DNA of 64,000 nucleotides from Myxococcota bacterium. Its GTDB lineage: Bacteria; Myxococcota_A; SURF-8; G963663525. Where the stretch lies: NCBI GenBank assembly GCA_963676915.2, contig CAXXVK010000010.1, forward strand, positions 150,992-214,991. Direction: 5' to 3'. Numbering within the stretch: position 1 is the stretch's first letter; the number at the start of each line of letters is the position of its first letter. A program made the translations under genes and the position numbers. The notes below the pieces were generated by a model. That model had not been told where the DNA came from and made no database searches. It saw nothing but the letters and a program-made list of their open reading frames with translations. This document shows, piece after piece, positions 2,842-63,499 of this stretch.

Positions 2842-3066
2842 TGTTCAAAGTGGCACCCCTTCCCGCAACGGAACTTGACAGAAGGGCCAGAAACGTTTAC
2901 TAGAATCCTTCGCGATCCGAAACGGTCGTGGGAAATTATTGTATTGGGTCGGCGGGAGGAGGCAGACGCGCAAAAAAGCGCCAAACGAAGAAAAATCGCC
3001 TCGTCTTTTGCATCTTCGGTAAATCGTGTATAGTCGAACCCAAGTGAAACAGGTAAAGGTAGACCA

Positions 3067-5171: not shown

Positions 5172-5177
5172 CGCGAC

Positions 5178-5957: not shown

Positions 5958-5977
5958 AGGCGGAGAGATCGTTGGGC

Positions 5978-6003
5978 GTGCATCACAAAATACAGCGACT
6001 TTC
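5978..6003 (+). repeat. Solo MITE-like terminal repeat
   Basis: GTGCATCACAAAATAcaGCGACTTTC matches 60256-60281 at 24 of 26 positions. Confidence 0.7.
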
Positions 6004-6017
6004 AAGCTGCCAAGCGA

Positions 6018-6042
6018 TGGACGGGGATTGCATCGCCGTCCA
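6018..6042 (-). repeat. REP-like palindrome, family copy 1
   Basis: Minus strand TGGACGGCGAT-GCA-ATCCCCGTCCA, one mismatch from 18412-18436. Confidence 0.75.
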
Positions 6043-6081
6043 GTTTCTTCTCGATGGAAAATGTGGGGAACGGGAAGTAAT

Positions 6082-8041: not shown

Positions 8042-8423
8042 TTATTTTACCTTTTAGTTATCTTTAAGTTTTGTGTGTTTTCCGTATAAAACATAAATAA
8101 CATGACCGTTCGATAAAGTCAACGCTTTTAGATAATTTCAGAGTTTTCTGATTGATCTCCAGCTTTGGGAAAACCAACGTGACTGATGAAGTGTTGTCAA
8201 TAAAGCGTGAACCTGTGTCGGAACGATTACCACGAATCACATTCCAATCAAATACAATCCGTTTGATTGACTCCCGTAATTCTTTGGATACCTTGAGACT
8301 ATGCTCTTTTCATTCTTTATCCTCCCTCTCCCCCCAGCCCACAAAAAATCCTGTATTTCCGCACTATTCATGGTATAGGAGACGGGACTGCGGAATTACT
8401 TCTTCGATGCTTTTGGAGATGCC

Positions 8424-32808: not shown

Positions 32809-33903
32809 ATGCGGTCCGAATCCCTGCCCGAACATTCCGGGGTTTCACGAAATGCCCGTTTCGATAACCTGAAACTGATACTGATCGTTCTCGTGGTTCT
32901 CGGTCATGCTCTCGAACTGGCCTGGGGCGGGCGTCCCTTGTTGCGTGCTGTCTGGCAGTGGATCTATCTGTTTCATATGCCGCTTTTCGCCTTTGTTTCC
33001 GGCTACTTCACGCGGGGTGATCTCGATTCGAAACGCATGTTTTCTGCGTTTTGTCGTTTGATCGTGCCGTATTTCCTCTTCATGATTTTGTATCGTTTGT
33101 TTTTGTATTTCATGCAAAACGGCAACGTTTTAACGTTGAATTTGTTTCATTCGTACGACTTGATGTGGTTTTTACCGGCTCTGTTTTTCTGGCGGATGTC
33201 CGTGCCGATCTTCATGAAGGTGCGTTATCCCTTCTTGCTTGCAGTGGCTTTGGGGCTGTTGATCGGCTTCAATCCGTTCATTTCCGGCACTATGGGTTGG
33301 ACGCAAACCTTTGCTTTTTCACCCTTTTTCGTGCTGGGACTTCTTGCACAAAACAAAAATCTTCAACCGCTGTTCGATCGCAGATCCCGGATACTTTCCG
33401 CCATTGTGTTGGTGACTCTGTTTGGCTTGTTGCTGGCCTACGGTTCCGAATTCGACACAAAATGGCTCCGTCACGCAATGTATAAAGATATCGGTCGTCA
33501 CGACTGGTGGGCTGCTTTGAATCGGCTCGCGGTCTATGGCGGTTCTTTGATATCCGGCATTGCGTTTCTATCGCTTGTCCCAGGACGGGAAATGAAATGG
33601 AGCGCTCTGGGAAAAGTTACGATCTTCCCCTATCTTTTGCACTATTTCGTGCTGAAAACGATTTATTTCACCGGTTGGCACAAAGCCATACCTTCCGAAA
33701 TGCCGCAAATCGGCTGGGTACTGTCGTTCTTGTTTTTATCGGTGCTTTTGGTGTTGCTTTTCAGCCATCGGTGGACGGTCCGCCTGCTGGAACCTGTCGT
33801 GCAGCCATCTCCCGACTTTATTCGGCGCTATGGAGTATTTTTACTCCTCGCCGGGTGGGCGGCGCTCGTAGCCTTCAACGGTATTGCTGCTGCCTTTCGT
33901 TAA
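32809..33903 (+). CDS. Acyltransferase family 3 (O-acetyltransferase) membrane protein
   Basis: RFDNLK...VVLGH, IYLFHMPLFAFVSGYF, WFLPALF, PYLLH. Confidence 0.9.
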   Translation: MRSESLPEHSGVSRNARFDNLKLILIVLVVLGHALELAWGGRPLLRAVWQWIYLFHMPLFAFVSGYFTRGDLDSKRMFSAFCRLIVPYFLFMILYRLFLYFMQNGNVLTLNLFHSYDLMWFLPALFFWRMSVPIFMKVRYPFLLAVALGLLIGFNPFISGTMGWTQTFAFSPFFVLGLLAQNKNLQPLFDRRSRILSAIVLVTLFGLLLAYGSEFDTKWLRHAMYKDIGRHDWWAALNRLAVYGGSLISGIAFLSLVPGREMKWSALGKVTIFPYLLHYFVLKTIYFTGWHKAIPSEMPQIGWVLSFLFLSVLLVLLFSHRWTVRLLEPVVQPSPDFIRRYGVFLLLAGWAALVAFNGIAAAFR

Positions 33904-33957: not shown

Positions 33958-36285
33958 CTACAACTGGCCGCCACGGGCCAGCCGTTGCCAGTTCGAAGCT
34001 TCCAGGTGGCGCAGTTTCCAGTTGGAAAAATCGAGGGAGAGTTCCCGCACCTTTTCCGGCAGACGATCGCGGAGGTTGCGCTTTTCACCCGGATCGACCC
34101 GCAGGTTGTAGAGTTCGAACAGGTTTTCATCGGTACGGTAGATCAGTTTCCAAGGCCAGTCCTGGTAGCTTTGCAAGGTATAGGAGAACGAGGGAGAGAA
34201 GATTTTTTCGCAGAAAATCGGGACGGGACGCGGGTCTTCGCCTCCGACGATGGATGCCGCAAGACTGCGTCCCTGATGTCGGGGATCGGCAGGCAATCCC
34301 ACCAGATCGAAAACTGTCGGTGCGAGATCCACCAGCGATACGGGCGTTTTTACACGGCGGGGGGAAACACCGGGCATTCGTATCACCAACGGAACGTGAA
34401 CCGATTCTTCGTAAATCGCCGAACCATGGTAATGGCCGCCGTGCTCTTCGAACTCTTCGCCATGATCGGCCGTCAACACCACGATGGTTTTCCGTGCCAT
34501 CTCGGTTTTTTCGAAGGCTTCGAGGAATCGGGCGACTTCCTGGTCCGAAAAGCGGATTTCGTGGTCATACAGATCCATCTGGCTATCGCCGTAGCGCTTT
34601 ACACCGGGATGTTTGATGTAGAGGAAATGAGGATCGAAATAGTGTAAGTACATGAAAACGCCACGGGTTTTCGCCTCACTCTCCCAGTTGGGCAATTGGG
34701 CGATAGCTTTGTTGGTAATCAAATGACTTGTGGCGTTGGCTTCGGCGTGGCCGTTTTCACGAAATGCGGTGGTGTCCCAAAGGTCGGCGCCACGTTCGAG
34801 ATTGCGGTGGTTGAAATACCAGTAAGAAAAAATGCCGTTGACCTGGTAGCCCAAATCACCTTTCAACCGCTCGTACATCGGCTGGGTGCGGTCGTCGATT
34901 TTGGGGAAGTTGTGGTAATTGCTCCAGTCGATTTGGGAAGGATACCGACCGGTCAGCAATGCCGGGATGGCTTGCGGCGTGTTCGGCGCTGTCGTATATG
35001 CCCGTTCGAACACCACCGACTGCCTGGCCCATTGGTCCAGTTTCGGCGATACGTCACGAGGATAGCCGTACATCCCAAGGTGGTCGGCCCGGAGTGCATC
35101 GATGACGATCAGCAGGATGTTGTATTCGTCCCGGAACATCTCGACGATACGCGAGGCACCGCCTTTTTCTTCTTCCGTTTCCTCCACTTGAGCAACAACG
35201 GGGGCAGCATCGCCACCGAGACAGTCGTTATCGAGTCCGTCGCCGGGGATTTCCTGCGCCAGAGGGTTGATGGTCGGGTCGGAATCGTTGCAATCCGCCC
35301 CTCCCAATACGGCGGAGAAACCATCGCCGTCGCGGTCGGTGACACGATGCAACAGAGCGAGCACCGGTTTGCCCAGTCCTGCATGATGGCGAACCATGCT
35401 TCCTGCATAGGAGAACCTGGGCCAGCTATCGATAAGCAGCATCCAGGCTCCGACGAGCAATGGTATCAGAAGCAGTCCCAGAATTTTCGCACCGATACGG
35501 AACCCTTGTGCAAACGGAACCAGCCCGGTGAGCAGGTACACCAGCATTTGGGTGGAGAAGAAAATACCCAGCAAAATGAACGGTGCCGGGTCGATCATGG
35601 TAAACAGGCTGCGGTTGATCCAGGCCAGCGTGACGATCGAAGTTCCCAACACGGCGGAAAGAAACAGGATTTGGATCTGTAAAAAGCGTCCCGGCAACCA
35701 GCGTTCGAAAATCGACCTACGTTGCGACCCAATGCCAGTAACAGCACCAGGAGCACCGGAGCCAGCACGGCAAGTCCCAAGGCTACCAGCGTAAAGACAA
35801 AAGCCGCCAGCGGTTTGTTGTTGTAGGCTGTACTGAAGTGAAGTTGAAGCAGAAACAGGCTGGGGACCGTCAGTGTCACCACCCCCGATTCCCGCAAAAA
35901 GATACGCCCCGAACCGCTGGTCTTCACCGGCCAGCCAGCGACTGATCTGGTACATCCAGTACACACGGCCGGAGAGGTCGAAACGTTTTTCCAGATACGA
36001 CCACAACGAGCCGCCGATCAGTCCGTACAACAGAGCGGGAGGAGCGAGCAGACAAACAGCCGCGAGAAAGTACCAGGCCAACTCGTTCCAGCTATGGAAA
36101 AACGCCTCGTTGGATGGCAGGGCCATCAACGCCACTTCGGAGAAAATCGTCGTCGGCACGGCGATCAATGCACCCAGGAAAAAGCGCGTACCGATGACGC
36201 TTTCCGCCGTCTGCGTCACTCGTATCTCACGAGAACGGGCGGTTTCTCTTGTATCGGCAGCCTGTTCCGTTTTCGTCTCGCTCAT
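33958..36285 (-). CDS. Membrane-anchored sulfatase-fold/phosphotransferase protein (Thr at the nucleophile position) with a MopE-like metal-binding motif; apparent compensating frameshifts at ~35710-35886
   Basis: DRDGDG...DCNDSDPTINP...DGLDNDC; IDALRADH, APNTPQAIPALLTG, HYFDPH, ADHGE, HVPL. Confidence 0.8.
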   Translation of the reverse strand: MSETKTEQAADTRETARSREIRVTQTAESVIGTRFFLGALIAVPTTIFSEVALMALPSNEAFFHSWNELAWYFLAAVCLLAPPALLYGLIGGSLWSYLEKRFDLSGRVYWMYQISRWLAGEDQRFGAYLFAGIGGGDTDGPQPVSASTSLQYSLQQQTAGGFCLYAGSLGTCRAGSGAPGAVTGIGSQRRSIFERWLPGRFLQIQILFLSAVLGTSIVTLAWINRSLFTMIDPAPFILLGIFFSTQMLVYLLTGLVPFAQGFRIGAKILGLLLIPLLVGAWMLLIDSWPRFSYAGSMVRHHAGLGKPVLALLHRVTDRDGDGFSAVLGGADCNDSDPTINPLAQEIPGDGLDNDCLGGDAAPVVAQVEETEEEKGGASRIVEMFRDEYNILLIVIDALRADHLGMYGYPRDVSPKLDQWARQSVVFERAYTTAPNTPQAIPALLTGRYPSQIDWSNYHNFPKIDDRTQPMYERLKGDLGYQVNGIFSYWYFNHRNLERGADLWDTTAFRENGHAEANATSHLITNKAIAQLPNWESEAKTRGVFMYLHYFDPHFLYIKHPGVKRYGDSQMDLYDHEIRFSDQEVARFLEAFEKTEMARKTIVVLTADHGEEFEEHGGHYHGSAIYEESVHVPLVIRMPGVSPRRVKTPVSLVDLAPTVFDLVGLPADPRHQGRSLAASIVGGEDPRPVPIFCEKIFSPSFSYTLQSYQDWPWKLIYRTDENLFELYNLRVDPGEKRNLRDRLPEKVRELSLDFSNWKLRHLEASNWQRLARGGQL

Positions 36286-52807: not shown

Positions 52808-53758
52808 TCAGGCGTGCAATGCCCGACCGATGACTTCATCGACGCGGACTTTCGGCGAGCCGTCCGAATTGAGGGGACAATGGATGTTGAATTGGCTCGT
52901 ATTGAAACGAAAATGCGTGTTTTCGCGGGTTTCTCGGCAGATTTGTCGATACTCCCGACTTTCGAAATGGGCTTTCAGTCGATCGTTCAAGGGAAGAATC
53001 TGTTCTTCATGGAACCAATCGAACTCCGCACCCACGCGCTCTTCGACCACGCAATGCAGCAGGCGTCCCCACGAAACATGGGAGAGCGGATAAGGTTCGA
53101 GGTCACGCATCAGGGCTTGCAGTTTTCCTTCTGTCACCGGGTTCAGGTAGTGAAATTTATACGAATACAGCACGGCATTGTGTAAGTATTCCGGGGTGTT
53201 GGCCACCCCGCCGTAGTTGTTGCGTTCTCCCATGGCAATGAAAATACGCATGATGTCTTTGCCGATTCTCAGGCCGGGGTGCCGTTGACCGGGAAGGGCA
53301 GGGAGCGGTTTTTCGAACGGAGCGAAAGGGTTCTGAAGGCAAAGCCACTGAATGAAAATCATCGGCAGCACCACACCGTGCAGATCCTTTGCACACTCTG
53401 CATGCGTAGAAAACGCGCCGTCGTGAATAAACGTTTCGATCAGCAGGTTTTCGGGTTGCGAGTTTCCGTTGTAGATACGAACTTCCCACACTCGCCGCTC
53501 TCGGGCTATAACTTTGGTACGCAGATCCGTAAATCCCGCGCTTCGTAGTTTCTGGGCGATGCCGTAGTGTTCAAGGCGTTCGGCTACCTGATCTTTATCG
53601 TATCGTCCCAATAACTTTGCCGGAGCCCCCAGATTCACCATTTTCCAGTCGTAATCCTCGTTCGACGGTAACAAGGTTTCGACATCGATATCCAACAACT
53701 CCAGGTGAAGCAGGTTGTTCAAGGCTTGTTCCAACCATTTCGGTCGTCGTGGCGGCAT
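52808..53758 (-). CDS. Conserved hypothetical protein resembling the C-terminal domain of myxobacterial deacetylase-family proteins
   Basis: FIQWLCLQNP...LPGQRHPGL...PEYLHNA...EGKLQALMRDL; resemblance recalled, not searched. Confidence 0.65.
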   Translation of the reverse strand: MPPRRPKWLEQALNNLLHLELLDIDVETLLPSNEDYDWKMVNLGAPAKLLGRYDKDQVAERLEHYGIAQKLRSAGFTDLRTKVIARERRVWEVRIYNGNSQPENLLIETFIHDGAFSTHAECAKDLHGVVLPMIFIQWLCLQNPFAPFEKPLPALPGQRHPGLRIGKDIMRIFIAMGERNNYGGVANTPEYLHNAVLYSYKFHYLNPVTEGKLQALMRDLEPYPLSHVSWGRLLHCVVEERVGAEFDWFHEEQILPLNDRLKAHFESREYRQICRETRENTHFRFNTSQFNIHCPLNSDGSPKVRVDEVIGRALHA

Positions 53759-53898: not shown

Positions 53899-55182
53899 CT
53901 ACGGCTTCCCCTGTACCGCAAACCCTCGTGAAATCCGTTCGGCCAGGTGCTCTCCGATGATCCGGTGTCCCAGGGCGTTGGGATGAATCGGGTCGGTTTC
54001 GGGACTGACGAACAGATAGCGGGTTTCTTTTTCGAACGCTGCCGGAACATCCACGAGCGGTGTCCCGGTGGTGTGGGCGATCCGTTCCATGATCGCGTTG
54101 TACTGCAATCCCATGCGACCGCAGCGCTTCGATTCGCTCGCCATGGTTTTTCGAATGGCTTCCCTCGCCTCGTCATCTCGTCCAAGCTTCCTGCAACATC
54201 GAGCCATCGTGTAATGGGCTAACGCCAGATCCGGCGCTAGTTCGAGCGCTTTTTCAAGCTCGGGTAACGCGTCCTCCCAGCGGTTTTCTTCGGACAACCG
54301 AACGCCTTTTTCCAAATGATCGTTTGCTTTTTCAAGGGTTTTCGCATCGGGCACGATTCCGGCAGGGAGATGGACCGGCATCTTGATCAGCCACACCCGA
54401 ATACCCTGCGCTTTCGCACTTTCGATAATGGCTTTTACATTTTCCTCGTAGTGACGTGGAGAAACCCGCACCGACTGGGGACGATACAACTCCATCGGTT
54501 TACCGTCCACCGTATCCGTACCACCCGCCAACGTCACAGACAGACGGTTCAATAACCTCACCAACAAGCTTCTCATCAATAGATTTTGCAGTGTGACTCC
54601 CACCAAGCCGGCAGGTTCCAGGCTGCGATCGGGGCGACCATCGGAGCGGAAAAAGCGGTAGGAATCCACATCGTTGATCACGTAGGAAACCGTAATTATG
54701 TCAGGGTGTTGTGGTGCAATTTCCCGTTCGAACAACAACCGTCCCTGGTGGGAGGAATAGCCGATCATCCCCCCGTTGGTCACTTGAACCGGACGCTTGA
54801 GTGACGCCGACAACCGATGCTGAAGAACCTGACTGTAGGTTTCGGAAGCGTCCACGCCCCATCCGAAGGTTGGCGAGGCTCCCAGGCAAACGATACGGAG
54901 TGCCTCCGACGGGTCACCATCCTCCCGAGCATCTTTCTCTGCCACCCGAAATCCTCTTTCGTCGGTGACAACCGCATGCTCTGCAAAGATCGTATCCAAC
55001 CCGGAGCGCTGCCGCCAGAACAACACCGGATCTTGCTCCAGTATATCGAGAATCTGGTCCAACTCGCTTTCGTCCGTGACCCATCGGGCAACCAGTTCCA
55101 GCGCCACGAACAAAAACAAACCGAATCCCACTGCAAGCAGGCGGGCCAGTCGTTCCACGTTTTTTCGGCTTCGTAAGGTCAT
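53899..55182 (-). CDS. Membrane-anchored SGNH/GDSL hydrolase-fold protein with TPR insertion
   Basis: N-terminal TM; CLGASPTFG, NGGMIGYSS, VIND, DPIHPN; TPR ALELAPDLALAHY. Confidence 0.85.
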   Translation of the reverse strand: MTLRSRKNVERLARLLAVGFGLFLFVALELVARWVTDESELDQILDILEQDPVLFWRQRSGLDTIFAEHAVVTDERGFRVAEKDAREDGDPSEALRIVCLGASPTFGWGVDASETYSQVLQHRLSASLKRPVQVTNGGMIGYSSHQGRLLFEREIAPQHPDIITVSYVINDVDSYRFFRSDGRPDRSLEPAGLVGVTLQNLLMRSLLVRLLNRLSVTLAGGTDTVDGKPMELYRPQSVRVSPRHYEENVKAIIESAKAQGIRVWLIKMPVHLPAGIVPDAKTLEKANDHLEKGVRLSEENRWEDALPELEKALELAPDLALAHYTMARCCRKLGRDDEAREAIRKTMASESKRCGRMGLQYNAIMERIAHTTGTPLVDVPAAFEKETRYLFVSPETDPIHPNALGHRIIGEHLAERISRGFAVQGKP

Positions 55183-55194
55183 AACGGTAGAGTA

Positions 55195-56028
55195 TCAGGA
55201 GTTCCGGTCGATCATACGAGAAAGATCCGTGTTTTTATCCTCAAGTCGATAGCGTTCCAAATGTTCGGCCACACGGGCGATTTTCTGCCGATAATACCGC
55301 TGAATCCCTTTTCGGTAGGCGTCTTCACCGTGGCGGGGAATATAATATCCCAATGCAAAGGCATTGAGCAACGTCAATTGAAAACAGCGGGCTTGCATGC
55401 TGCGGTCGGTTTCGGTGCCTTTCAGATTCTCTTCCTCGGAAAGTCCGAAATCCACCAAAAGTCGGCCCGTCGTGCGCTGTTTTTCTTCCTCGCTCGATGA
55501 TTTTTCCTCCTTCGGAATCAAACCGACTTTGTGTGTCCAGTCCAATCCGCCGGGAGAATCGTAGTCGAATACCGGATTTTGGTAAACAATCCCGAAACGG
55601 GCATACAGGTTACGAAGTTCATCCAGAACCTCTTGCATCTGAGCGGGAAAATGCGACATATGCCGGTTCGCGCCGTCCGCAACCTCGCCGATGCCATGAT
55701 CGAGGCAATATACGAGCGTCCGCACGTGCATGCTCAATTTGCACAGACCACAGGTGGTCAGGTTGAAAAAGCCGAACTTGCGGACATTCTCCCAATAATT
55801 CAGGTAGGTTACCCAACGAAACAGACGGTCCACATCGTAGATGCGATGTTCGAAGCGTTCACCGAACCTTTGTTCGAGCAAACGAACGTTGGTACGGCTG
55901 TTTTCGGGTTTGGAAATCCCCGAATGCCCATAGGACAGCAGGTGCAGACGGTCGTAGGATTCGGCCAGCAACGCCACGGCGGCGGTAGAATCGGTTCCTC
56001 CCGAAAAAAGTACGGCGATTTCCTTCAT
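55195..56028 (-). CDS. PP-loop (adenine nucleotide alpha hydrolase) ATPase
   Basis: LFSGGTDST PP-loop; CGLCK. Confidence 0.8.
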   Translation of the reverse strand: MKEIAVLFSGGTDSTAAVALLAESYDRLHLLSYGHSGISKPENSRTNVRLLEQRFGERFEHRIYDVDRLFRWVTYLNYWENVRKFGFFNLTTCGLCKLSMHVRTLVYCLDHGIGEVADGANRHMSHFPAQMQEVLDELRNLYARFGIVYQNPVFDYDSPGGLDWTHKVGLIPKEEKSSSEEEKQRTTGRLLVDFGLSEEENLKGTETDRSMQARCFQLTLLNAFALGYYIPRHGEDAYRKGIQRYYRQKIARVAEHLERYRLEDKNTDLSRMIDRNS

Positions 56029-56198
56029 CCACCGTTCTCCTTTCGTTCGAGACGCTTCAGCATCCAGCGCATGAGAGCATAATATAATCCGTAAAGACCT
56101 TGCGCGACCCAGCCCAGCCCTTCCGCCAGCGCGACACGCAACCGCCAGGGTAGCAAAAGCGCTAGAAGAAGCAGGAAAAAGAGCATCAGCCGTTTCAT
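56025..56198 (-). CDS. 57-aa membrane microprotein (absent from the ORF track)
   Basis: MKRLMLFFLLLLALLLPWRLRVALAEGLGWVAQGLYGLYYALMRWMLKRLERKENGG; ATGA overlaps with both neighbours. Confidence 0.75.
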   Translation of the reverse strand: MKRLMLFFLLLLALLLPWRLRVALAEGLGWVAQGLYGLYYALMRWMLKRLERKENGG

Positions 56199-57643
56199 GT
56201 CTTTTTCCCTTCCTTCGTTCCTGCCATCAACCGCCGCACCAAAAACGCCTGTAAGCCCAGCGCTAATGCTTCAGCCACTCCACGCAAAAAACGCCATTTT
56301 TTCGGTGCTTTTATAAAACCTCGCCACAAACGGCGAAAACTGAACACGAACCGTTCCTGGGCCAGCAGGATCAGTTCGTTCAACTCGGTCACATCCAATT
56401 CGCCGTAACTGCGAGCATACGAGAAAAAATGATACTCCGCGAAATTTTCGGGACGGGTTCCGCTTTCTTTCGAATGCACTTGCTCGAAAAATCCGCTTCC
56501 CGGATACGGCGTCGCCTTGAAAAAATAGGCGGCATCCAAACTCGAACGTACGGCGAAATCGATGCTGTCGAGGATTTCCTCGCGGGTCTGCGTGGGAAAA
56601 CCGAACATGAAATACGCCCCAGTGAGAATCCCGATTTTCGAGGTTTTTTCAAAGACTTCGGATGCTTTTTCCACGTTCAGGTTCTTGCCAATCACCTTTT
56701 GTAACCGTGGAGAAGCGGTTTCGAAACCGTAATTGACTTTGTAGGTTCCGGCTTTGTAAAAAAGCTCGATCAACTCATCGGTCATGATATCGGCGCGCAA
56801 TCCATTGGGAAAAGCAAAAGACAAGTCCATCCCGGAGTCAATTACCCGCGTCATGATCTCTTTGGCGCGCTTGGCGTTGAAATTGAAGATATCGTCGAGA
56901 ACGTGCACCTCTCGAACGCCGAATTCCTCGTACAACCGTTTCAATTCATTAAAAACGCTGTCTGCGCTTCGGGCACGAACCCTTTTCCCGAAAAGATTGT
57001 GGCAAAAATAGCAACCGTACGGACATCCTCGCGAGGAGGACAGCACCGCGTAATAGTCCGCCTTCAATGCCCCGTTCCAGTTGGCGAACGCGGCGTAGTA
57101 TTTCATATCAATCAGATCCCAGGCCGGAAACGGCAGGTCATCGAGATTTTCGATAGGGGAACGCTCGGCATTTCGGACACGTTCGCCGTCCTGTCGGCTA
57201 ACCAATCCAGCGATGGACTCGAACTGTGAACCATCTTCATAAGCATCCAGAATTTCAGGAAAACTCTCTTCCGCCTCACCGAGAACGATCAGATCGAGGT
57301 TGGCATCCCCCAGCAGATCTTCTCCGGCAACGGTGGCATGAGGTCCGCCAACCAGCGTCAATGTATCCGAACGAGCGGCTTTGACAACTCCGGCCAGCTC
57401 GTGCAACAGGTCGTCCTCGCAGCTCATCACACTGAAGCCGACGATATCGGCTTCCCCCGAAGCGAGCTGCTTGCGAACCGCTTCCTCTCCCAAAATTCCG
57501 GTATCGAGAATGCGTATCTCGTAGCGCTCTGCAAATCGCTCACGCACCACAGCGGCCAGCGACAACAACCCCAACGGAGGAACGGGACCGCCACCTTTAA
57601 GGAATTTGAACGTTCGGACGAACCATAGTTTCCGTTGGTGCAT
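56195..57643 (-). CDS. Cobalamin-binding radical SAM enzyme
   Basis: PPLGLLSLAA, GGPHAT B12-binding domain; SRGCPYGCYFC; DDIF; GFET; TPYPGS. Confidence 0.92.
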   Translation of the reverse strand: MHQRKLWFVRTFKFLKGGGPVPPLGLLSLAAVVRERFAERYEIRILDTGILGEEAVRKQLASGEADIVGFSVMSCEDDLLHELAGVVKAARSDTLTLVGGPHATVAGEDLLGDANLDLIVLGEAEESFPEILDAYEDGSQFESIAGLVSRQDGERVRNAERSPIENLDDLPFPAWDLIDMKYYAAFANWNGALKADYYAVLSSSRGCPYGCYFCHNLFGKRVRARSADSVFNELKRLYEEFGVREVHVLDDIFNFNAKRAKEIMTRVIDSGMDLSFAFPNGLRADIMTDELIELFYKAGTYKVNYGFETASPRLQKVIGKNLNVEKASEVFEKTSKIGILTGAYFMFGFPTQTREEILDSIDFAVRSSLDAAYFFKATPYPGSGFFEQVHSKESGTRPENFAEYHFFSYARSYGELDVTELNELILLAQERFVFSFRRLWRGFIKAPKKWRFLRGVAEALALGLQAFLVRRLMAGTKEGKKT

Positions 57644-57652
57644 GAAAAACGC

Positions 57653-57889
57653 CTAAAAAATGGCGTAAATAGCGGGAAGAATGGAGGAATTTCCGGTAAG
57701 CGTAAGAAACAGACCCAGAAAACCCAGCACCAGCCAGAAGGGGATCAAATAGTATTTTTTACTTTCCCGGATACGCAGAAACAAGTACAGCAACAGATCC
57801 CGATTGCTCTCGAACTGGGGATACTCCTGGTTTTCGGATTCCGTTTCGTGCTCCTGCTTTACGGGTTCATCGGGGAGGGGGGTAGTCAT
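57653..57889 (-). CDS. DUF5989 (SxtK-like) small membrane protein
   Basis: KKYYLIP...SSILPAIYAIF C-terminal signature. Confidence 0.8.
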   Translation of the reverse strand: MTTPLPDEPVKQEHETESENQEYPQFESNRDLLLYLFLRIRESKKYYLIPFWLVLGFLGLFLTLTGNSSILPAIYAIF

Positions 57890-59379
57890 TGTGCAATCAC
57901 CCTTTCCTTTACAAGCGTCTCGTAAAGCGTCTCAACCATAACCTGATGCCCCAGCGGAGTGCAATGATCATCGTCCAGAAAATACTTGTTTTTCGGCGAT
58001 AATGCATCGAAAACCGGGAGGTGATCGACCAACGGAAGCTTGTGTTCCTTGGCCGCAGCCTTCAAAGCACTGTTGGCTAAAGGATATTCGATGGGATAGG
58101 TCTGCAACACCAAGGGAGCCTGGCTTTTGCGGTGAATCATGCGAATGATGGTGTCCAGGTCGTCTTCGATCCAATCCTTGACTTGGCGTTCCCACGTCAA
58201 TTTGTCCTCGAAAATCCGAATGTACGGCTCCAAAAACGGACTGGGCTTCGGATCGATGGAATCGAGCGCCTCACGTTGCAGTTTTTTCAGCGTATCCACC
58301 ACCGTTTGGGCATCAATGCGGCTTTGGCGATCGAATACTTTGCTCAACCAGTAGTAATTGTCCTCGGAAATCGGTTTGGCTTTAACACCTTTTAAATACA
58401 CTTCTGCGGCCTGGTCGTATTGGCCATTGTACATTCGATGATCGCCCAAAAATCGAAAATACTCGGAGGCACAGCTTTTTAGTTGTTCCGTCGAAAGTCT
58501 CTGTCCACCGGGAAGCGTGGAATTGACCCACTTCGCCGCTTCAACCAAGTCTTCCTGATCCATGGCCAGGCCAATCATTTTAAACAATACACGATGTTCG
58601 GGATCTTTGGCGTCAGGGTCATCAAGAAAGGCTTTTCCGGCCTCTAATGCATCTTCGTAGCGATTTTCTTTGACATACTTCCAGAATTCGGGGGCACTCA
58701 CGTCACCGGGTTCTGGAGAAGACGCGTACATTTTTCGATAATCGGGAGGATCGAAAGAGCAATTGGAGTGATTTGCTTTGAGATAATTGAGCCGTGTGTA
58801 GGTTTCTCCCAGGTTATATTCTTCTTGGAGATTTTCATCCACGTCGGGTGTTTCCATGAAACTCATGGACATCAACCGCACCATTTGCACGACGCGCCGG
58901 TCGTAAAACCAACTTTTTAGCCTGGACTTCCAATCGTTTTTGCGGTGCTTGTCGAATTCCCACGGATTGAACAAATTGGCAGAACCCACCAATAAAATCA
59001 CCAGATCGGGCCGATATTTTTCGAGAACTCCGGGAAGGTAGGTGATCAATTCAGTCGTGTTGGTCTCGCAAACTCCCTGGTTGAATACCCGAAACGCTCC
59101 CGGACCGTATTTTTCATCCAGCGTTTTTTGCAGATACGCCGGATAGGTTTCGTCATCGTCTACCAAGCCGCCATGGGTGTAGCTATCTCCAAGGCAAAGA
59201 ATCCGCCGCGTTCCCGGGTTGTCGGCGTCAGGCGCACCTATCGTAGGTCGGTCGAATATGTACCGACCTGCAAGAATCAATCCCCCCTCCAACAGCACTA
59301 TGAAGAACACCAAGCTTATCAGAAAAACAAGCCCTCGACCCCAGACTGGAAGAGGTTTCACTGCCCCTTTTTTGTCCAT
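57886..59379 (-). CDS. Membrane-anchored SGNH/GDSL hydrolase-fold protein with TPR-like insertion
   Basis: N-terminal TM; CLGDSYTHG, NQG, GSAN, DDDHCT. Confidence 0.85.
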   Translation of the reverse strand: MDKKGAVKPLPVWGRGLVFLISLVFFIVLLEGGLILAGRYIFDRPTIGAPDADNPGTRRILCLGDSYTHGGLVDDDETYPAYLQKTLDEKYGPGAFRVFNQGVCETNTTELITYLPGVLEKYRPDLVILLVGSANLFNPWEFDKHRKNDWKSRLKSWFYDRRVVQMVRLMSMSFMETPDVDENLQEEYNLGETYTRLNYLKANHSNCSFDPPDYRKMYASSPEPGDVSAPEFWKYVKENRYEDALEAGKAFLDDPDAKDPEHRVLFKMIGLAMDQEDLVEAAKWVNSTLPGGQRLSTEQLKSCASEYFRFLGDHRMYNGQYDQAAEVYLKGVKAKPISEDNYYWLSKVFDRQSRIDAQTVVDTLKKLQREALDSIDPKPSPFLEPYIRIFEDKLTWERQVKDWIEDDLDTIIRMIHRKSQAPLVLQTYPIEYPLANSALKAAAKEHKLPLVDHLPVFDALSPKNKYFLDDDHCTPLGHQVMVETLYETLVKERVIAQ

Positions 59380-59635
59380 CCTACCCCTGTTGTCTAAAAC
59401 CGTGCCGTTTAGATACTTTCGTAGTTAAACAGCGTTGTGTGATGGCGGTCGATCTCTTTCGCGGGGAACGGAATACATTTCTCCATTCAGTAAGATTTGA
59501 ACCGAAACCTTGAAAGTTCCAGCATGAGCCACCATCCTCCCCGATTCGCGGGAACCCCCGCTCTCATCAGTGTAACGAATTGTGGCAGACGGTGTCAACC
59601 CGAATCGGTCACAGTGGGGACGTTTCAGTTGTGAA

Positions 59636-60127
59636 TCAGCGTTTTTTCGGTATCCAGGCCCAGGTCATTTCACATAGTACCGGCTCGATGCTCGCCTCGT
59701 CGGTCAACGTAACCGGAACCGTCACCTCACCCTTGGGATCGTTGCGAATGCTGGCCAATTGCTCGTCCGTGAGTTTGGCCACCGCTGTGAAATCCCCGGT
59801 GGAGCGCTTGACGAAATTCAGCTTCATGCTTTTCATCAAAGGCAGGGAATGGTCCGGCAGGTTGATCCCGACCATCAGCCCGGTGGCGGTTTCGGCAAGC
59901 AGGCACATCGCCGAAGCATGAACCTGTTTGAGATGATTTTGCGCTTTTCGCCGGTTTTTCAGAATCAGTTCCACGCGCCGTTCATCGACCGAAACGATTT
60001 TCACGCCTGCCGTCGCCATAAACGGGACTTTCAGCCCGAAAGCCAGGGAAAACACCGAAGTACGCATGGATTCCGGCAAAAACGAAAAGGTATTGTAAGC
60101 TTTGGTCAGTTGATTGGAAAACGGCAC
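59636..60127 (-). CDS. Hot-dog fold thioesterase-like protein (DUF4442/PaaI-like)
   Basis: GTG start after GGGAGAAGG; NHLKQVHASAM...ETATG. Confidence 0.8.
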   Translation of the reverse strand: MPFSNQLTKAYNTFSFLPESMRTSVFSLAFGLKVPFMATAGVKIVSVDERRVELILKNRRKAQNHLKQVHASAMCLLAETATGLMVGINLPDHSLPLMKSMKLNFVKRSTGDFTAVAKLTDEQLASIRNDPKGEVTVPVTLTDEASIEPVLCEMTWAWIPKKR

Positions 60128-60253
60128 GGTCCTTCTCCCTTCGGTTTTCGTTGCAGGCGTCGACCCGAAACCGGTCGATTTGACACACCATGTCATAGTA
60201 TGTTCGGACTCGGAAAGCAAGAGCGGGAGTTTTTAGAATTTTTGGGATGGATG

Positions 60254-61657: not shown

Positions 61658-61822
61658 CATCCCCGAAACTGGAGTTTCCAATACAGGTGGGGATGACGAC
61701 AGAAGGTAAGCTTCGACAAAAACAGGTGTCAAAACAGGCTTGTTGATTCGAAGTGGATCTTTTTTGCTGTATTTTGCTTGATATTGCCGGATTGCCGAAA
61801 ACACAAAACGAGGAAAAATTCC

Positions 61823-63499
61823 ATGTCCGAGCCGCGCTGGTATCGACAGTACGACCCACATGTTCCACACCATCTGGAGTATCCCAACCGGGATCTGTAC
61901 TCCTACGTAACGGCGACCGGTCGTCAGCGACCCGAACGCGCCGCCATACGGTTCATGGGATTGACACTGACTTATGAAGAGTTGCTGGCGTATATCGAGC
62001 GTTTCGCAGGGGCGTTGTACGCACGGGGAATTCGCAAGAACGACCGTGTGATCCTGCTGATGCCCAACTGTCCTCAGTTCATTATTGCGTATTATGCGCT
62101 GATGAAGCTCGGAGCGGTGGCGGTGCTCGCCAATCCGCTCAATGCCGAAAGAGAACTGGAATTCAAGTTCAAGGATTCCGGGGCACGTACGTTGATCGCG
62201 TTGGATCTGTTGTCGAAAAAAATCAACACCATCCGCAAAACCGTCGAATTGGATGTGCTGGTCTATACCTCTCTCGCCGATTTCCTGCCGTTTCCCCTGA
62301 ACCTACTGTACCCGATCAAGCGACGATTCGACAAAGCCATGCCTGCGGTGAATATCCCAAAGGATTCAATCACTTATCGCATGCGCCCGATGCTGCACGA
62401 GTTTCACGAGGCACCCGAGGTCGAAATAGATCCCGATGCACTGGCCGTGCTGATCTATTCCGGTGGAACGACGGGGATTTCCAAGGGCATCATGCTGTCC
62501 CATCGGGCGATGATCTGCAACGCCATGCAGGCGACAAGCTGGGTTGAAATCCAGGAATCCGACAGTCTTTTGGCGGTGTTGCCGCTGTTTCACGGGTTTG
62601 GAATGTCGGTTTGCATGAATGCTCCGCTTTCCTGCGGGGGGACGGTGATCCTGTTGCCGCGTTTCGACGCACGCGAGTTGGTTCGTACCGTCGATCAGGC
62701 ACGACCGACGATTTTCGCCGGTGTCCCGACGATGTTTATCGCCATCAAGGAACTGGCCGATCTGGACCGCTACGACCTGACCTCCTTGCGGGGAATTTTC
62801 GTGGGCGCGGCCCCCCTTCCGTTGGCGGTGATGCGAGACTTCGAGGAGCGCAGCGGGGCGGCGTTGATCGAAGGCTACGGTCTGACCGAGTGCGTAACCG
62901 CCATCGCCTGCAATCCAGCGCATGGCAAGCGCAAACCGGGCACCATCGGTATCCCGTTTCCCGACGTGGAATGGAAAATCGTGGATCTCGAACGAGGTGA
63001 AAAGGAAATGCCGTTGGGTGAGTCGGGAGAGATCGTTGTGAAATGTCCCGATTTGATGCTGGGATACTTGAACCAGCCTGAAATGACAAAGGAAACCCTG
63101 CGAGACGGCTGGTTGTATACCGGCGATATCGGAATCATGGACGAAGACGGTTACATCACGATTGTAGACAGGAAAAAAGATCTGGTGATCGTCTCCGGGT
63201 TCAACGTGTTTCCCAGTGAAATCGACGAAGTACTGCACGAACATCCCCAGGTTGCCGAGGCGGTGGCGGTTGGGTTGCCCCATCCGACCAAAGGCGAGTT
63301 TATCAAAGCGTATGTCGTGCCGAAATCAGGGGAAACCATCGAACCGGAAAGCATTCGGCAGTTTTGCAAAGACAAACTAAGTCCTTATATGGTTCCGAAA
63401 GAGGTAGAATTCCGTAAAGAATTGCCGAAATCGATGATCGGCAAGGTTTTGCGACGTTCTTTGCGAGAAGAAGAAGAAAAGAAGTGGTCCGAAAGCTAA
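61823..63499 (+). CDS. Long-chain fatty acid--CoA ligase (FadD-like)
   Basis: YSGGTTGISKG, GYGLTE, YTGDIG, DRKKD, GKVLRR; GAGG RBS. Confidence 0.93.
   Translation: MSEPRWYRQYDPHVPHHLEYPNRDLYSYVTATGRQRPERAAIRFMGLTLTYEELLAYIERFAGALYARGIRKNDRVILLMPNCPQFIIAYYALMKLGAVAVLANPLNAERELEFKFKDSGARTLIALDLLSKKINTIRKTVELDVLVYTSLADFLPFPLNLLYPIKRRFDKAMPAVNIPKDSITYRMRPMLHEFHEAPEVEIDPDALAVLIYSGGTTGISKGIMLSHRAMICNAMQATSWVEIQESDSLLAVLPLFHGFGMSVCMNAPLSCGGTVILLPRFDARELVRTVDQARPTIFAGVPTMFIAIKELADLDRYDLTSLRGIFVGAAPLPLAVMRDFEERSGAALIEGYGLTECVTAIACNPAHGKRKPGTIGIPFPDVEWKIVDLERGEKEMPLGESGEIVVKCPDLMLGYLNQPEMTKETLRDGWLYTGDIGIMDEDGYITIVDRKKDLVIVSGFNVFPSEIDEVLHEHPQVAEAVAVGLPHPTKGEFIKAYVVPKSGETIEPESIRQFCKDKLSPYMVPKEVEFRKELPKSMIGKVLRRSLREEEEKKWSES

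Follow-up and report, generated by a model that had tools for sequence, protein, structure and literature searches.

A conserved cassette that joins a YcfA-like PP-loop ATPase to a variant DUF5989 microprotein and membrane-anchored SGNH proteins and probably decorates the cell envelope

In the Dlt D-alanylation system (the MBOAT DltB, the microprotein DltX and the SGNH protein DltD), the cytoplasmic ANL-type ligase DltA forms an adenylate (PMC13231372). An FXYXXF "acyl shuttle" motif has been published for DltX and bacterial MBOATs (PMC12148441). That source places it in the C-terminus, outside the cell, of DltX and of PatA, from the PatA/PatB system of peptidoglycan O-acetylation, gives the PatA motif as FIYANF and reports experimental demonstration of an acyl-tyrosine. 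The saxitoxin (sxt) cluster encodes a DUF5989 microprotein, SxtK, and an SGNH protein, SxtL, which has been proposed as a decarbamoylase (PMC2679770); SxtJ and SxtK are given no function in PMC2679770 and PMC2684587. Our literature search found no paper on DUF5989. YcfA, of the YcfA/YcfC pair of Erwinia amylovora (9KQ6, 9KQ7, 9KQ9, 9KQD), is a thioamide-forming enzyme of 6-thioguanine synthesis whose mechanism is treated in PMC12494993. Here we describe a myxobacterial gene cluster that resembles each of these systems in part.

Organization of the locus

The window, a 64,000-nucleotide stretch of a Myxococcota genome (contig CAXXVK010000010.1), carries six co-oriented minus-strand ORFs at 53899..59379. 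In order, they encode a membrane-anchored SGNH protein (g1), a DUF5989 microprotein (g2), a B12-binding radical SAM enzyme (g3), a 57-aa hydrophobic microprotein (g4), a PP-loop ATPase (g5) and another membrane-anchored SGNH protein (g6). The sequence-only reading of this DNA had described six co-oriented genes joined by ATGA overlaps or gaps of at most 12 bp, and ORF coordinates together with direct reading of the junctions bear this out: g1/g2, g3/g4 and g4/g5 overlap by 4 bases at ATGA, g4 thus overlapping both of its neighbors, and gaps of 9 and 12 bases separate g2 from g3 and g5 from g6. A topology scan found one hydrophobic segment each in g1, g2, g4 and g6 and none in g3 or g5. Domain searches of the six genes returned no carbamoyltransferase, MBOAT or SxtJ match, and the cluster lacks a cysteine desulfurase or other PLP partner. 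The flanking genes, which encode DinB, a 316-aa protein of no assigned family and DUF4442, are not envelope genes. Approximately 190 bases upstream of g1, a promoter-like site (59569..59598, minus strand; TTGACA, 18-base spacer, TACACT) is the top consensus match of the region at 10/12, a weak signal, as the scan found 7 sites where chance predicts 5.2.

A constant core of four genes

Versions of the cassette are found in differing surroundings in Myxococcota, Omnitrophota and Bdellovibrionota. A genome of the same genus (G001) holds all six genes at 60-82% identity, and one of the same order (G007) holds five of the six, both amid unrelated flanks; this recurrence indicates that chance does not explain the arrangement. 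The sequence-only reading had allowed that the genes might not co-occur elsewhere, which they do, or that homologous clusters might always contain a carbamoyltransferase, which is present in 7 of the 26 loci with scanned neighbors.

What stays constant is a core of four genes: the 57-aa microprotein, the PP-loop ATPase, a variant DUF5989 and a membrane-anchored SGNH protein. Of the 28 loci in which the PP-loop gene is full-length, 26 have a g4 homologue; within 8 kb, 22 have an SGNH gene and 20 a DUF5989 gene. An SGNH gene is also found in 19 of those 20 DUF5989-bearing loci, the exception being L042, whose sequence stops 870 bases past the PP-loop gene. The minimal four-gene cluster is L049; L050 is similar, with DUF5989 not detected. 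A channel-forming loader of the MBOAT or AT3 type is absent from the window and from 25 of the 26 scanned loci. Envelope genes found around the relatives include those for a GT9 heptosyltransferase, a PMT_2/ArnT-like protein, an O-antigen ligase, an SIS protein with a cytidylyltransferase, and an MBOAT.

These distributions bear on the reading that the cluster combines two independent modules acting on a common polymer, with g4, g5 and g3 serving sulfur insertion into, or tailoring of, a glycan or lipid precursor in the cytoplasm, and DUF5989 and SGNH proteins serving acylation or deacylation from an unlinked donor. The PP-loop/microprotein pair does occur with neither an SGNH nor a DUF5989 gene nearby in G076, G091, L031 and L038 (the first three with a tandem PP-loop paralogue), and in L028, L034 and L037 the DUF5989 gene lies approximately 6 kb from the PP-loop gene and adjoins a carbamoyltransferase. 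We nevertheless consider this reading unlikely, as L049 consists of just the core genes, translational coupling or near-coupling links all six genes of the window, and a variant DUF5989 tail is found only in PP-loop genomes (8/8, detailed below).

Both g3 and g1 are lineage-specific. The radical SAM enzyme had been taken as a working member of the cassette, but orthologues of g3 (56195..57643, minus strand, 482 aa) are confined to the window, L011, L023, L024, L025, L026 and L027 (7/31 loci), which places it outside the constant core. An orthologue of g1 was found in L011, L024, L025, L026 and L027 and not in L023. The g3 product is a class-B (B12-binding) radical SAM enzyme by Pfam (B12-binding, E 7.5e-17; Radical_SAM, E 2.2e-22), with a CxxxCxxC motif visible in the translation, and sequence comparison with the PDB ranks AprD4 (6fd2, E 2.6e-14) and TokK as its nearest relatives. 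Remodeling of a membrane lipid by g3, akin to what HpnJ, HpnR or ladderane-type enzymes do, with the SGNH proteins as lipases or acyl-exchangers, would suit the weak NCBIfam matches of g3 to HpnJ, HpnR and TIGR04072, a family of lipid B12-radical SAM enzymes, and the closest solved relatives of g6 by sequence are TesA/lysophospholipase L1-type enzymes. This is the least probable of the readings considered here: every NCBIfam match of g3 scores far under its cut-off, the gene lies outside the core, and the invariant tyrosine tail and the PP-loop enzyme are left without a role.

Instead of g3- and g1-type genes, Bdellovibrionota loci have one for a SufS-like desulfurase and one for a different radical SAM protein. 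The Halobacteriovorax and Bacteriovoracaceae loci show a microprotein/PP-loop/Cys-Cys protein/SufS arrangement, with the same microprotein and PP-loop pair and the same YcfA kinship as the window, whose cluster has a B12-radical SAM gene instead of the SufS and Cys-Cys genes.

The PP-loop ATPase and the 57-aa microprotein

The product of g5 (55195..56028, minus strand, 277 aa) is a YcfA-like PP-loop (AANH) ATPase with the motif SGGTDS. Pfam returned only sub-threshold QueC and DUF7411 matches. The predicted structure (pLDDT 88.3) has a PP-loop fold, as does YcfA (PMC12494993), and its top Foldseek matches are the four YcfA entries 9kq6/9kq7/9kq9/9kqd (E 4e-11, TM 0.64/0.80); a profile search of the PDB also found YcfA (E 3.2e-20, residues 4-160), the closest solved relative of g5. 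The earlier assignment of the PP-loop enzyme to an adenylating type is supported.

SGGTDS, C108 and C215 are invariant in all 28 g5 homologues, and C93 and C96 are conserved in 25 and 24 of them. From YcfA, g5 keeps the catalytic Asp of the SGGxDS loop and the equivalents of F132 and Q135, but residues for GTP binding, general-base function and cysteine positioning are lost; non-conserved positions in the alignment are R18/T12, Y128/H123, Q129/M124 and E134/A129 (YcfA/g5). The enzyme further differs in its extra cysteines C93, C96 and C215, its conserved C-terminal helical domain and its coupling to a membrane microprotein, and the cassette lies in an envelope-gene context rather than one of antimetabolite synthesis. 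The Bdellovibrionota relatives, unlike the window, share with YcfA/YcfC a cysteine-desulfurase-like PLP partner beside the gene: in six of these loci a SufS-like gene (403 bits, cut-off 475) lies downstream of the PP-loop gene. Because the nearest relative makes thioamides and a SufS-like desulfurase is adjacent in Bdellovibrionota, the evidence points to sulfur chemistry, which the earlier reading had not considered.

The g4 microprotein (56025..56198, minus strand) has an LPWRLR motif, with P17 and R21 invariant across 19 sequences, and no match in Pfam or NCBIfam. It had been paired with DUF5989 as a joint relay across the membrane, but the two are not equivalent: g4 has no tyrosine motif, and wherever it occurs the PP-loop gene is there too, making it the probable membrane partner of that enzyme.

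DUF5989, the SGNH proteins and a proposed route

The g2 product (57653..57889, minus strand, 78 aa) is a DUF5989 protein (Pfam, 41 bits; cut-off 27) ending in ...LPAIYAIF. Its single hydrophobic segment (48-66) is flanked by K/R on the N-terminal side only. P50, P72 and Y75 are invariant in 23/23 aligned members, and the tyrosine sits three residues from the C-terminus, as it does in 30/30 further loci. Canonical tails read FIYTLF and fit FXYXXF; variant tails read AIYA[IL]F or AIYSLIP, departing from the Dlt/Pat motif in that Ala replaces the first Phe. Compared with the canonical form, the window protein has PAIYA[IL]F for PFIYTLF and a longer N-terminus. The earlier comparison with DltX holds for DUF5989, likewise a single-pass microprotein with a tail predicted to lie outside. 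The resemblance consists of a six-residue motif and topology; homology to DltX was undetected, with no other Pfam family recurring at E up to 10, and a profile search found no PDB relative of DUF5989.

DUF5989 occurs in 165 of 301 sampled Myxococcota genomes, mostly in polysaccharide loci and mostly without a radical SAM gene. The best eight copies (at least 83.6 bits; next, 70.9) all have the variant C-terminus, and all eight are in genomes among the 10 with a full-length PP-loop gene, to which this C-terminus is confined. A C-terminal regex matched 25 of 8174 ORFs, all DUF5989-like apart from one MBOAT (L051) with the tail PFIYFQF. Canonical DUF5989 adjoins a carbamoyltransferase in 13 of 17 Myxococcota loci, and the source genome also carries such a pair, on contig C60. 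An SGNH gene is near canonical DUF5989 in 1/17 loci by Pfam and 3/20 by purpose-built HMMs, so DUF5989 can work without a neighboring SGNH.

This last pattern would also be expected if DUF5989 and the 57-aa protein were mere tethers or regulators that keep cytoplasmic enzymes (PP-loop and radical SAM here, carbamoyltransferase elsewhere) at the membrane's inner face, where these would modify a lipid-linked glycan precursor ahead of its export, with the SGNH proteins trimming or editing outside. A tether-like fusion of SxtJ to the carbamoyltransferase in L028, the lack of an encoded loader channel and the proposed decarbamoylase role of SxtL (PMC2679770) lend this reading some weight, yet we find it rather unlikely. 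Tethering alone would not call for a tyrosine that is kept without exception at a set spacing from the free C-terminus, across the membrane from the enzyme; the PFIYxxF ending is shared by the L051 MBOAT, and the variant form of the tail tracks the presence of the PP-loop cassette.

Each SGNH protein carries a single hydrophobic segment near its N-terminus (g1, 17-35; g6, 13-31) and intact Ser/Asp/His blocks, in agreement with the earlier comparison with membrane-anchored SGNH proteins such as AlgJ, PatB and DltD, and their catalytic domains are predicted to lie outside the membrane. The core partner is g6 (53899..55182, minus strand, 427 aa; Lipase_GDSL_2, E 4.1e-17), in which S103, D397 and H400 are invariant and N170 nearly so across 20 sequences. 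Its TPR insert exceeds the Pfam cut-off (TPR_2, TPR_19). The lineage-specific second SGNH protein, g1 (57886..59379, minus strand, 497 aa; Lipase_GDSL_2, E 1.2e-16), has GDS at residues 64-66, a DxxH block near the C-terminus and a helical TPR-like insert with TPR matches below cut-off. The g6 model (pLDDT 91.2) adopts an SGNH fold at Z ~21; its matches in fold searches are generic esterases and the peptidase CgnD.

The last of these matches raises a RiPP-like or cofactor-like pathway, in which DUF5989 or the 57-aa protein would be a precursor modified by the B12-radical SAM and PP-loop enzymes (by methylation or thioamidation, for example) and released by an SGNH peptidase. Peptide thioamides are made by PP-loop enzymes in closthioamide synthesis, and in mycofactocin synthesis radical SAM chemistry acts on peptides with a C-terminal tyrosine. 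ApyD and rSAM_ocin_1, both RiPP enzymes, are among the top NCBIfam matches of g3, though far under cut-off, and CgnD, the SGNH-type leader peptidase of crocagin (PMC10070186), aligns with g6 over the longest stretch (247 residues, Z 21.2). We regard such a pathway as very unlikely, given that DUF5989 is a widespread membrane protein found mostly in polysaccharide loci, that most PP-loop loci have no radical SAM gene, that the SGNH proteins are anchored with their catalytic domains predicted outside, and that we saw no gene for a transporter, for leader binding (RRE) or for peptidase export.

Our preferred reading, offered tentatively, is a Dlt/Pat-like extracytoplasmic transfer system that lacks an MBOAT and would be loaded by an adenylate-forming cytoplasmic enzyme. 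In the cytoplasmic half, whose function we infer from fold and motif, g4 would hold g5 at the membrane, and g5 with ATP would adenylate a carbonyl or carboxyl oxygen of a small group or precursor, which it may then exchange for sulfur, on the model of YcfA and other PP-loop enzymes of sulfur transfer. In the window lineage, g3, translationally coupled to g4 and g5, would tailor the same group; in Bdellovibrionota, the SufS-like desulfurase, small Cys-Cys membrane protein and different radical SAM protein would take its position. In the periplasmic half, motif, topology and triad suggest a chemistry in which the g2 tail (...PAIYAIF), exposed outside the membrane, carries the group as an ester on its tyrosine, a candidate shuttle like the FXYXXF tyrosine of DltX and PatA. 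The core protein g6, with g1 as an extra, would accept it on the catalytic serine for transfer to an envelope polymer or lipid. The membrane-crossing step and the acceptor, also part of the earlier scheme, we infer.

Like Dlt and Pat, the cassette encodes a membrane-anchored SGNH protein with a Ser-Asp-His triad, and, like Dlt, it would have an adenylate-forming enzyme upstream in the pathway. It differs in lacking a carrier protein as well as any MBOAT or AT3 protein, in using a PP-loop ATPase for activation and in the internal TPR-like insert of its SGNH proteins. The design parallels the carbamoyltransferase/SxtJ/DUF5989 cassette, known from the saxitoxin cluster and from numerous polysaccharide loci of bacteria, which also combines a cytoplasmic ATP-dependent enzyme with a small membrane protein; the PP-loop ATPase and 57-aa protein would stand in for that pair.

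The envelope-modification reading thus survives in part: conservation, the DltX likeness, the SGNH blocks and an adenylating PP-loop enzyme favor it, but a core role for the radical SAM enzyme and equal relay roles for the microproteins have fallen away. The link of the PP-loop/microprotein pair to a DUF5989 tyrosine tail and SGNH enzymes is new here. The cassette, conserved and undescribed, probably decorates the cell envelope, and the group that it transfers may contain sulfur.

Organization and conservation of the cassette

The cassette lies on the minus strand of contig C10, part of an assembly of 5.18 Mb with a completeness of 90.8%. It runs from g1 (57886-59379; 497 aa), which matches the Pfam family Lipase_GDSL_2, through g2 (57653-57889; 78 aa; DUF5989), g3 (56195-57643; 482 aa; B12-binding and Radical_SAM domains), and g4 (56025-56198), a 57-aa microprotein with zero Pfam matches, to g5 (55195-56028; 277 aa), which carries the PP-loop motif SGGTDS at its start, and g6 (53899-55182; 427 aa; Lipase_GDSL_2 and TPR). 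Read from the sequence, ATGA overlaps join g1 to g2, g3 to g4, and g4 to g5, and distances of 9 and 12 bases separate g2 from g3 and g5 from g6. Open reading frames and Pfam searches thus bore out the six-gene, co-oriented cluster of the sequence-only reading in its coordinates, overlaps, gaps, and domain calls. TPR matches above the Pfam cut-off occur in g6 only, as opposed to g1, and the matches of g5 to QueC and DUF7411 are both sub-threshold. Promoter and terminator scans returned counts no higher than the shuffled expectation; the single good -35/-10 match found by the promoter scan lies upstream of g1.

Several neighboring genes were considered as further members. A 316-aa gene downstream of the cassette (52808-53758, minus strand) was rejected as a seventh member on account of a 140-base gap and its absence from homologous loci. 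Its product has no Pfam or NCBIfam match and is 25% identical to the C-terminal portion of a 556-aa ORF from L017, a locus with a shorter-matching PP-loop gene. Upstream, a DUF4442 (hotdog-like) protein (59636-60220, minus strand) and an AMP-binding enzyme of the acyl-CoA ligase type (61778-63499, plus strand) were rejected as an acyl-activating part, since the upstream genes differ in a genome of the same genus. About 20 kb from the cassette, the window also encodes two envelope-type proteins, a 775-aa protein with a sulfatase domain and a MopE-type metal-binding motif (33958-36285, minus strand) and an adjoining Acyl_transf_3 (AT3) acyltransferase (32809-33903, plus strand).

Forty-one related genomes were searched with g5, and all six proteins were mapped onto the fetched regions. 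In the same-genus genome G001 the six genes are all present, in identical order and at 60-82% identity, and G007, from the same order, has g2 to g6; the cassette is rearranged in two further genomes, G006 and G023. In G001 the flanks are a TPR lipoprotein gene upstream and a GT9 heptosyltransferase gene downstream; in G007, an APH-type kinase gene precedes the cassette, and genes for a sensor kinase and a sigma-54 regulator follow it. These differing flanks indicate a unit bounded by g1 and g6.

A wider scan took one genome per species (84 relatives, of which 80 were kept). The g5 protein was matched over nearly its whole length in 29 loci (L023-L051), with L025 shortened by a contig end; in L052 the match is limited to residues 2-108, where the contig ends, and in loci beyond these it is confined to the approximately 155 N-terminal residues. 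As deposited, the labels of the full-length loci are Myxococcota, Omnitrophota, and Bdellovibrionota (Halobacteriovorax, here L034; Bacteriovoracaceae; Pseudobdellovibrio), with further loci from metagenome-assembled genomes (MAGs) labelled Rickettsiales, Enterobacterales, Burkholderiales, Elusimicrobiales, and Curtissbacteria. The loci found come mostly from metagenome assemblies, and counts of them are non-independent because several are near-duplicates or derive from the same genomes as those searched above.

Gene recurrence across these loci defines a core. A g4 homologue is present in 26 of 28 loci with a full-length PP-loop ORF (none in L048 or L051) and directly adjoins that ORF as called in 20; where it does not, an ORF was called too long, a PP-loop paralogue intervenes, or the two genes are farther apart. 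Within 8 kb of the PP-loop gene, 20 of the 28 loci encode a DUF5989 protein and 22 an SGNH protein, and 19 of the 20 with DUF5989 also have SGNH within that distance. Five of the eight loci without DUF5989 end 2.7 kb or less past the PP-loop gene, and the other three (L031, L038, and L050) extend further. Locus L049 holds only g4-like, g5-like, SGNH, and DUF5989 genes, set between unrelated genes. The core therefore comprises the microprotein, the PP-loop enzyme, DUF5989, and an SGNH protein. An orthologue of g3 (E < 1e-60) occurs in 4 of the 28 loci, plus L025, G001, and the window itself (7/31), all of them Myxococcota, unclassified, or Omnitrophota, and both the g3 radical SAM gene and g1 are lineage-specific additions. 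The proposal that the six genes form one pathway therefore stands in part: the cassette is conserved, and the radical SAM gene falls outside its constant part.

A Pfam scan of neighbors covered 26 distinct loci. In six Bdellovibrionota loci (L028, L029, L032, L035, L037, and L041), downstream of the PP-loop gene come first a gene for a protein of about 120 aa that belongs to no family, with a Cys-Cys pair near its N terminus in L028, and then an Aminotran_5 gene whose product is SufS-like (403 bits; cut-off 475). A radical SAM gene of the non-B12 type comes after the Aminotran_5 gene in L028, L029, L035, and L037. A carbamoyltransferase is encoded in 7 of the 26 loci (L026, L028, L029, L032, L035, L037, and L041), fused to an SxtJ domain in L028. 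Other neighbors are PMT_2/ArnT-like glycosyltransferases (L029, L045, L047, and L051), an O-antigen ligase (L027), SIS and cytidylyltransferase genes (L029), and peptidase-U32 genes with another B12-radical SAM gene (L045).

The genome searches with g5 also turned up a larger PP-loop family that matches g5 over residues 2-155 only (L053-L102; L017, L019, and L020). Such proteins are common in Desulfobulbaceae and other Desulfobacterota and are also found in Myxococcota; several are in open frames of 400-600 aa and may be fusions. In L019 and L020 the gene lies approximately 1.7 kb or less from a B12-radical SAM gene. Elsewhere (L031, L039, and L115, L116, and L117 from genomes G091 and G076), the microprotein gene is followed by tandem PP-loop genes, one full-length and one of the N-terminal-only type, and the regions fetched there contain neither SGNH nor DUF5989 genes.

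Predicted enzymes of the cassette

Structure-based comparison places g5 with YcfA, the PP-loop enzyme of 6-thioguanine synthesis. The best 20 Foldseek matches of the g5 AlphaFold model (pLDDT 88.3) are all Erwinia amylovora YcfA chains (best E 4.3e-11; TM 0.64 by query and 0.78-0.81 by target), and the next are QueC, TtuA, NcsA, and asparagine-synthetase-type enzymes at TM 0.35-0.44. The g5 family profile likewise retrieves YcfA by hmmsearch (residues 4-160; E 3.2e-20). Across 28 aligned homologues, SGGTDS, C108, D118, G119, P128, K203, G204, D208, Q212, and C215 are invariant, with C93 kept in 25 and C96 in 24.

In the account of PMC12494993, YcfA activates the C6 carbonyl of a guanine nucleotide by adenylation and joins L-cysteine to it; the C-S bond is then broken by YcfC, a desulfurase-like PLP enzyme, and a thioamide remains. 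Pairwise alignment pairs D13 of g5 with the essential D19 of YcfA, and F127 and Q130 with F132 and Q135. The guanine- and cysteine-handling residues R18, Y128, Q129, and E134 are replaced in g5 by T12, H123, M124, and A129, so that the substrate, and perhaps the sulfur donor, must differ; positions 123-126 vary within the g5 family itself. Pfam searches found no adjacent PLP-dependent C-S lyase or desulfurase partner in the window. The cassette thus shares its enzyme family with YcfA/YcfC but differs in substrate residues and genomic context. The family is small: 652 of 1.84 billion cluster representatives match at E <= 0.001 and 123 at E <= 1e-30, and about 33 of the 150 matches listed cover the whole profile.

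The g3 protein combines an N-terminal B12-binding domain (PF02310, E 7.5e-17) with a radical SAM domain (PF04055, E 2.2e-22), and its translation contains the CxxxCxxC motif as C-PYG-C-YF-C. These features identify it as a predicted class B (B12-dependent) radical SAM enzyme. It falls in no named subfamily (PhpK, HpnJ, BchE, ApyD, or others): all 25 NCBIfam matches listed are far under their cut-offs, the best at 157 bits against 575.

Both SGNH proteins flank the DUF5989 gene in the window cluster. Across 20 g6-type sequences, G101, S103, D171, D397, and H400 are invariant and N170 nearly so, and by alignment g6 has the Ser of block I, the Asn of block III, and the DxxH of block V. Its model (pLDDT 91.2) consists of a long N-terminal helix, a small beta domain, and an SGNH core, with a helical insert at residues 280-372 that contains the TPR matches. 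VIA-align scores many SGNH esterases at Z 19-21. The longest alignment among the matches listed, 247 residues with the beta domain included (Z 21.2), is to CgnD, which is also the top Foldseek match and which PMC10070186 describes as a slow-acting leader peptidase in the biosynthesis of the RiPP crocagin. Neither PatB nor DltD occurs in the 50 structural matches listed for g6, an absence that excludes nothing. The translation of g1 carries GDS and DxxH blocks, and the similarity it has in common with g6 is limited to the block I region.

A tyrosine tail on DUF5989 proteins

Among 23 aligned DUF5989 proteins, all of which match that Pfam family, only P50, P72, and Y75 are invariant. The tail tyrosine is kept in 30 of 30 further Myxococcota DUF5989 loci, and its spacing to the C terminus and the final Phe are retained in most. 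Tails in PP-loop loci read LPAIYA[LI]F, with the minor variants YSVF, YTFF, YMSF, YIAF, and LYFIF, or LPAIYSLIP in four loci; the two aligned copies from carbamoyltransferase regions (the second copy in L029 and one on contig C60 of the window genome) end in APFIYTLF. We refer to AIYA[IL]F and AIYSLIP as variant tails and to FIYTLF as canonical. A third DUF5989-like tail type, SPLLYPLF, again with the tyrosine, ends a small ORF directly after the carbamoyltransferase gene of L041 (13586-13771).

In PMC12148441, DltX and bacterial MBOATs such as PatA are described as bearing an extracellular C-terminal "acyl shuttle" hexapeptide, FXYXXF (FIYANF in Neisseria PatA), whose tyrosine accepts the acyl group and hands it on to an SGNH partner; non-Dlt pathways are described there as lacking a DltX-like microprotein. 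The canonical DUF5989 tail, F-I-Y-T-L-F at a free C terminus, fits this hexapeptide exactly, and the window tail, A-I-Y-A-I-F, fits at all positions except the first. A search pattern with two residues between Pro and Tyr and two more between Tyr and a C-terminal Phe, or ending in the IP variant, matched 25 of 8174 ORFs from loci L023-L102. Twenty-four of these are DUF5989-like, and the 25th is an MBOAT in L051 (PFIYFQF).

This MBOAT is the only one in the 26 neighbor-scanned loci. It is encoded in a Pseudobdellovibrio MAG (L051:3870-6256), with an SGNH gene immediately after it. These two genes share their locus with a variant DUF5989 and a PP-loop gene, so that a classical MBOAT-SGNH pair and the PP-loop cassette sit side by side.

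Hydropathy analysis detects a single hydrophobic segment in g2 (residues 48-66), with Lys or Arg at 39, 41, 44, and 45 before it and zero after. By the positive-inside rule, g2 would be a single-pass membrane protein with its C terminus outside. Searches for DltX homology found no other Pfam family in more than 3 of the 23 aligned members at E up to 10, and the DUF5989 profile retrieved no relevant PDB chain. A complex prediction for the g6 SGNH protein with DUF5989, each supplied with its alignment, gave a score of 0.02 (mark, 0.32), a result that weighs neither for nor against such a complex.

A profile search detected DUF5989 in 165 of 301 sampled Myxococcota genomes; full-length g5 matches occur in nine, with a tenth (G008) cut by a contig end. 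The eight best DUF5989 matches (83.6-99.5 bits; next, 70.9) come from G000, the window's own genome, and from G001, G006, G007, G008, G023, G078, and G098, which make up 8 of the 10 genomes with a full-length PP-loop gene. All eight copies have the variant tail and the next 22 loci have the canonical one; given the relatedness of these genomes, the association does not amount to a statistical test. A variant DUF5989 is missing from the other two PP-loop genomes, G076 and G091, which have the microprotein, the PP-loop gene, and a PP-loop paralogue in tandem, and no SGNH or DUF5989 gene was found in the 11-19 kb fetched around them.

Canonical DUF5989 genes keep other company. A carbamoyltransferase gene is found within plus or minus 1.5 kb in 9 of 22 Myxococcota loci, and, in a Pfam scan of wider regions that left out six very long ORFs (L151:5688-9098, L154:9629-12355, L157:592-5271, L160:4120-7131, L161:5114-10771, and L167:32-4036), in 13 of the 17 loci in which DUF5989 was re-found (20 fetched). 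Exosortase EpsH or its DUF3485 partner is encoded in 7 of the 22 loci, and UDP-GlcNAc 2-epimerase, glycosyltransferase, and Poly_export genes are also present. This placement in polysaccharide loci supports an envelope-glycan role for the DUF5989 family. In L150, L154, L159, L162, L166, and others, the carbamoyltransferase-DUF5989 pair adjoins EpsH and its partner, and downstream there are often DUF362 and GFO/IDH-type oxidoreductase genes. The window genome has such a carbamoyltransferase-DUF5989 pair on contig C60 (L112, G000:C60:147000-163000, about 2400-9400). There the gene for a 614-aa carbamoyltransferase precedes those for a canonical DUF5989 (PFIYTLF) and for a 179-aa protein with zero Pfam matches; also nearby are a radical SAM gene of the SPASM type, a further B12-radical SAM gene, and a fragment of an IS4/5 transposase.

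SGNH genes are rare around canonical DUF5989 (1 of 17 loci by Pfam at E up to 1e-7; 3 of 20 by HMMs built from the g6 and g1 families). Close linkage to SGNH genes thus characterizes the PP-loop cassette and the sxt cluster and not DUF5989 generally, which weakens a general model of shuttling to SGNH proteins. The same rarity keeps alive a less likely alternative, in which DUF5989 would serve as a tether only.

A candidate transfer route and its implications

Our preferred reading is a Dlt/Pat-like extracytoplasmic transfer without an MBOAT. It builds on features obtained directly: gene order, translational coupling, conservation, the PP-loop fold and motif, the tail tyrosine, the SGNH triad, and the hydrophobic-segment pattern. 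We propose that g4 would tether g5 at the inner face of the membrane, where g5 would adenylate a carbonyl or carboxyl group, possibly swapping oxygen for sulfur, and that g3 may tailor this group. The group would then become an ester on Tyr75 of g2, outside the membrane, and g6 and g1 would pass it via their catalytic Ser to an envelope acceptor. Pfam detects no MBOAT in the window cluster, and the cassette contains neither an MBOAT nor an AT3 conduit. YcfA is described in PMC12494993 as a two-layer heptameric ring; in principle, seven or more g4 helices joined to a ring of g5 might make up such a conduit.

We also put forward a bolder, joint claim, although we think it unlikely to hold in full: DUF5989 (SxtK) proteins would be free-standing tyrosine shuttles of an MBOAT-independent class of extracytoplasmic transfer, in which a tethered, adenylate-forming cytoplasmic enzyme loads the C-terminal tyrosine and the group passes to envelope polymers, via SGNH proteins where present, with the PP-loop version being sulfur-bearing. 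The loader would be a NodU-type carbamoyltransferase with SxtJ or, here, the YcfA-like ATPase g5 together with its 57-aa partner g4, and the group that g5 would load may be of the thio-acyl or thiocarbamoyl type.

Comparison with known systems sets the cassette apart. With Dlt and PatAB it shares the tail logic and the SGNH partner but differs in its loader. With the saxitoxin-cluster carbamoyltransferase/SxtJ/SxtK/SxtL type it shares the microprotein family but differs in its enzyme: the window cluster has DUF5989 (SxtK) and SGNH (SxtL) genes, and Pfam finds neither a NodU/CmcH carbamoyltransferase nor SxtJ in it. In PMC2679770 and PMC2684587, sxtJ and sxtK are given as "unknown" or "hypothetical," and the former source proposes SxtL as a decarbamoylase. 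Literature searches found no paper on DUF5989, nothing on acyl-shuttle microproteins beyond the PatAB paper and its preprint, and nothing relevant on a carbamoyltransferase with SGNH in the periplasm. New here are the link between DUF5989 and a tyrosine tail, the restriction of the variant tail to PP-loop genomes, and the version with a B12-radical SAM enzyme. The cassette is real, rare, and undescribed. We place it with the SGNH/tyrosine-shuttle systems of envelope modification; the bolder, MBOAT-independent and possibly sulfur-moving class is the less likely reading.

Acylation of envelope polymers controls resistance to antimicrobial peptides, lysozyme, and phage. To our knowledge, it has been explained so far by two loaders, MBOAT and AT3, that feed an acyl-tyrosine and then an SGNH enzyme. 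The cassette combines a tyrosine tail and SGNH proteins with neither of these loaders, and has a PP-loop ATPase of a small family instead. If the tail tyrosine acts as in DltX and PatA, such systems would have a third feeding route, possibly with a sulfur-bearing group, and DUF5989, which is also present in the saxitoxin cluster with its role unassigned since 2008-2009, would gain a function. We know of no transfer of the thio-acyl or thiocarbamoyl type on bacterial surfaces. Were the bolder reading true, SxtJ, SxtK, and SxtL would receive their first mechanistic roles, and the sulfur-bearing group would represent a chemistry new to bacterial surfaces.
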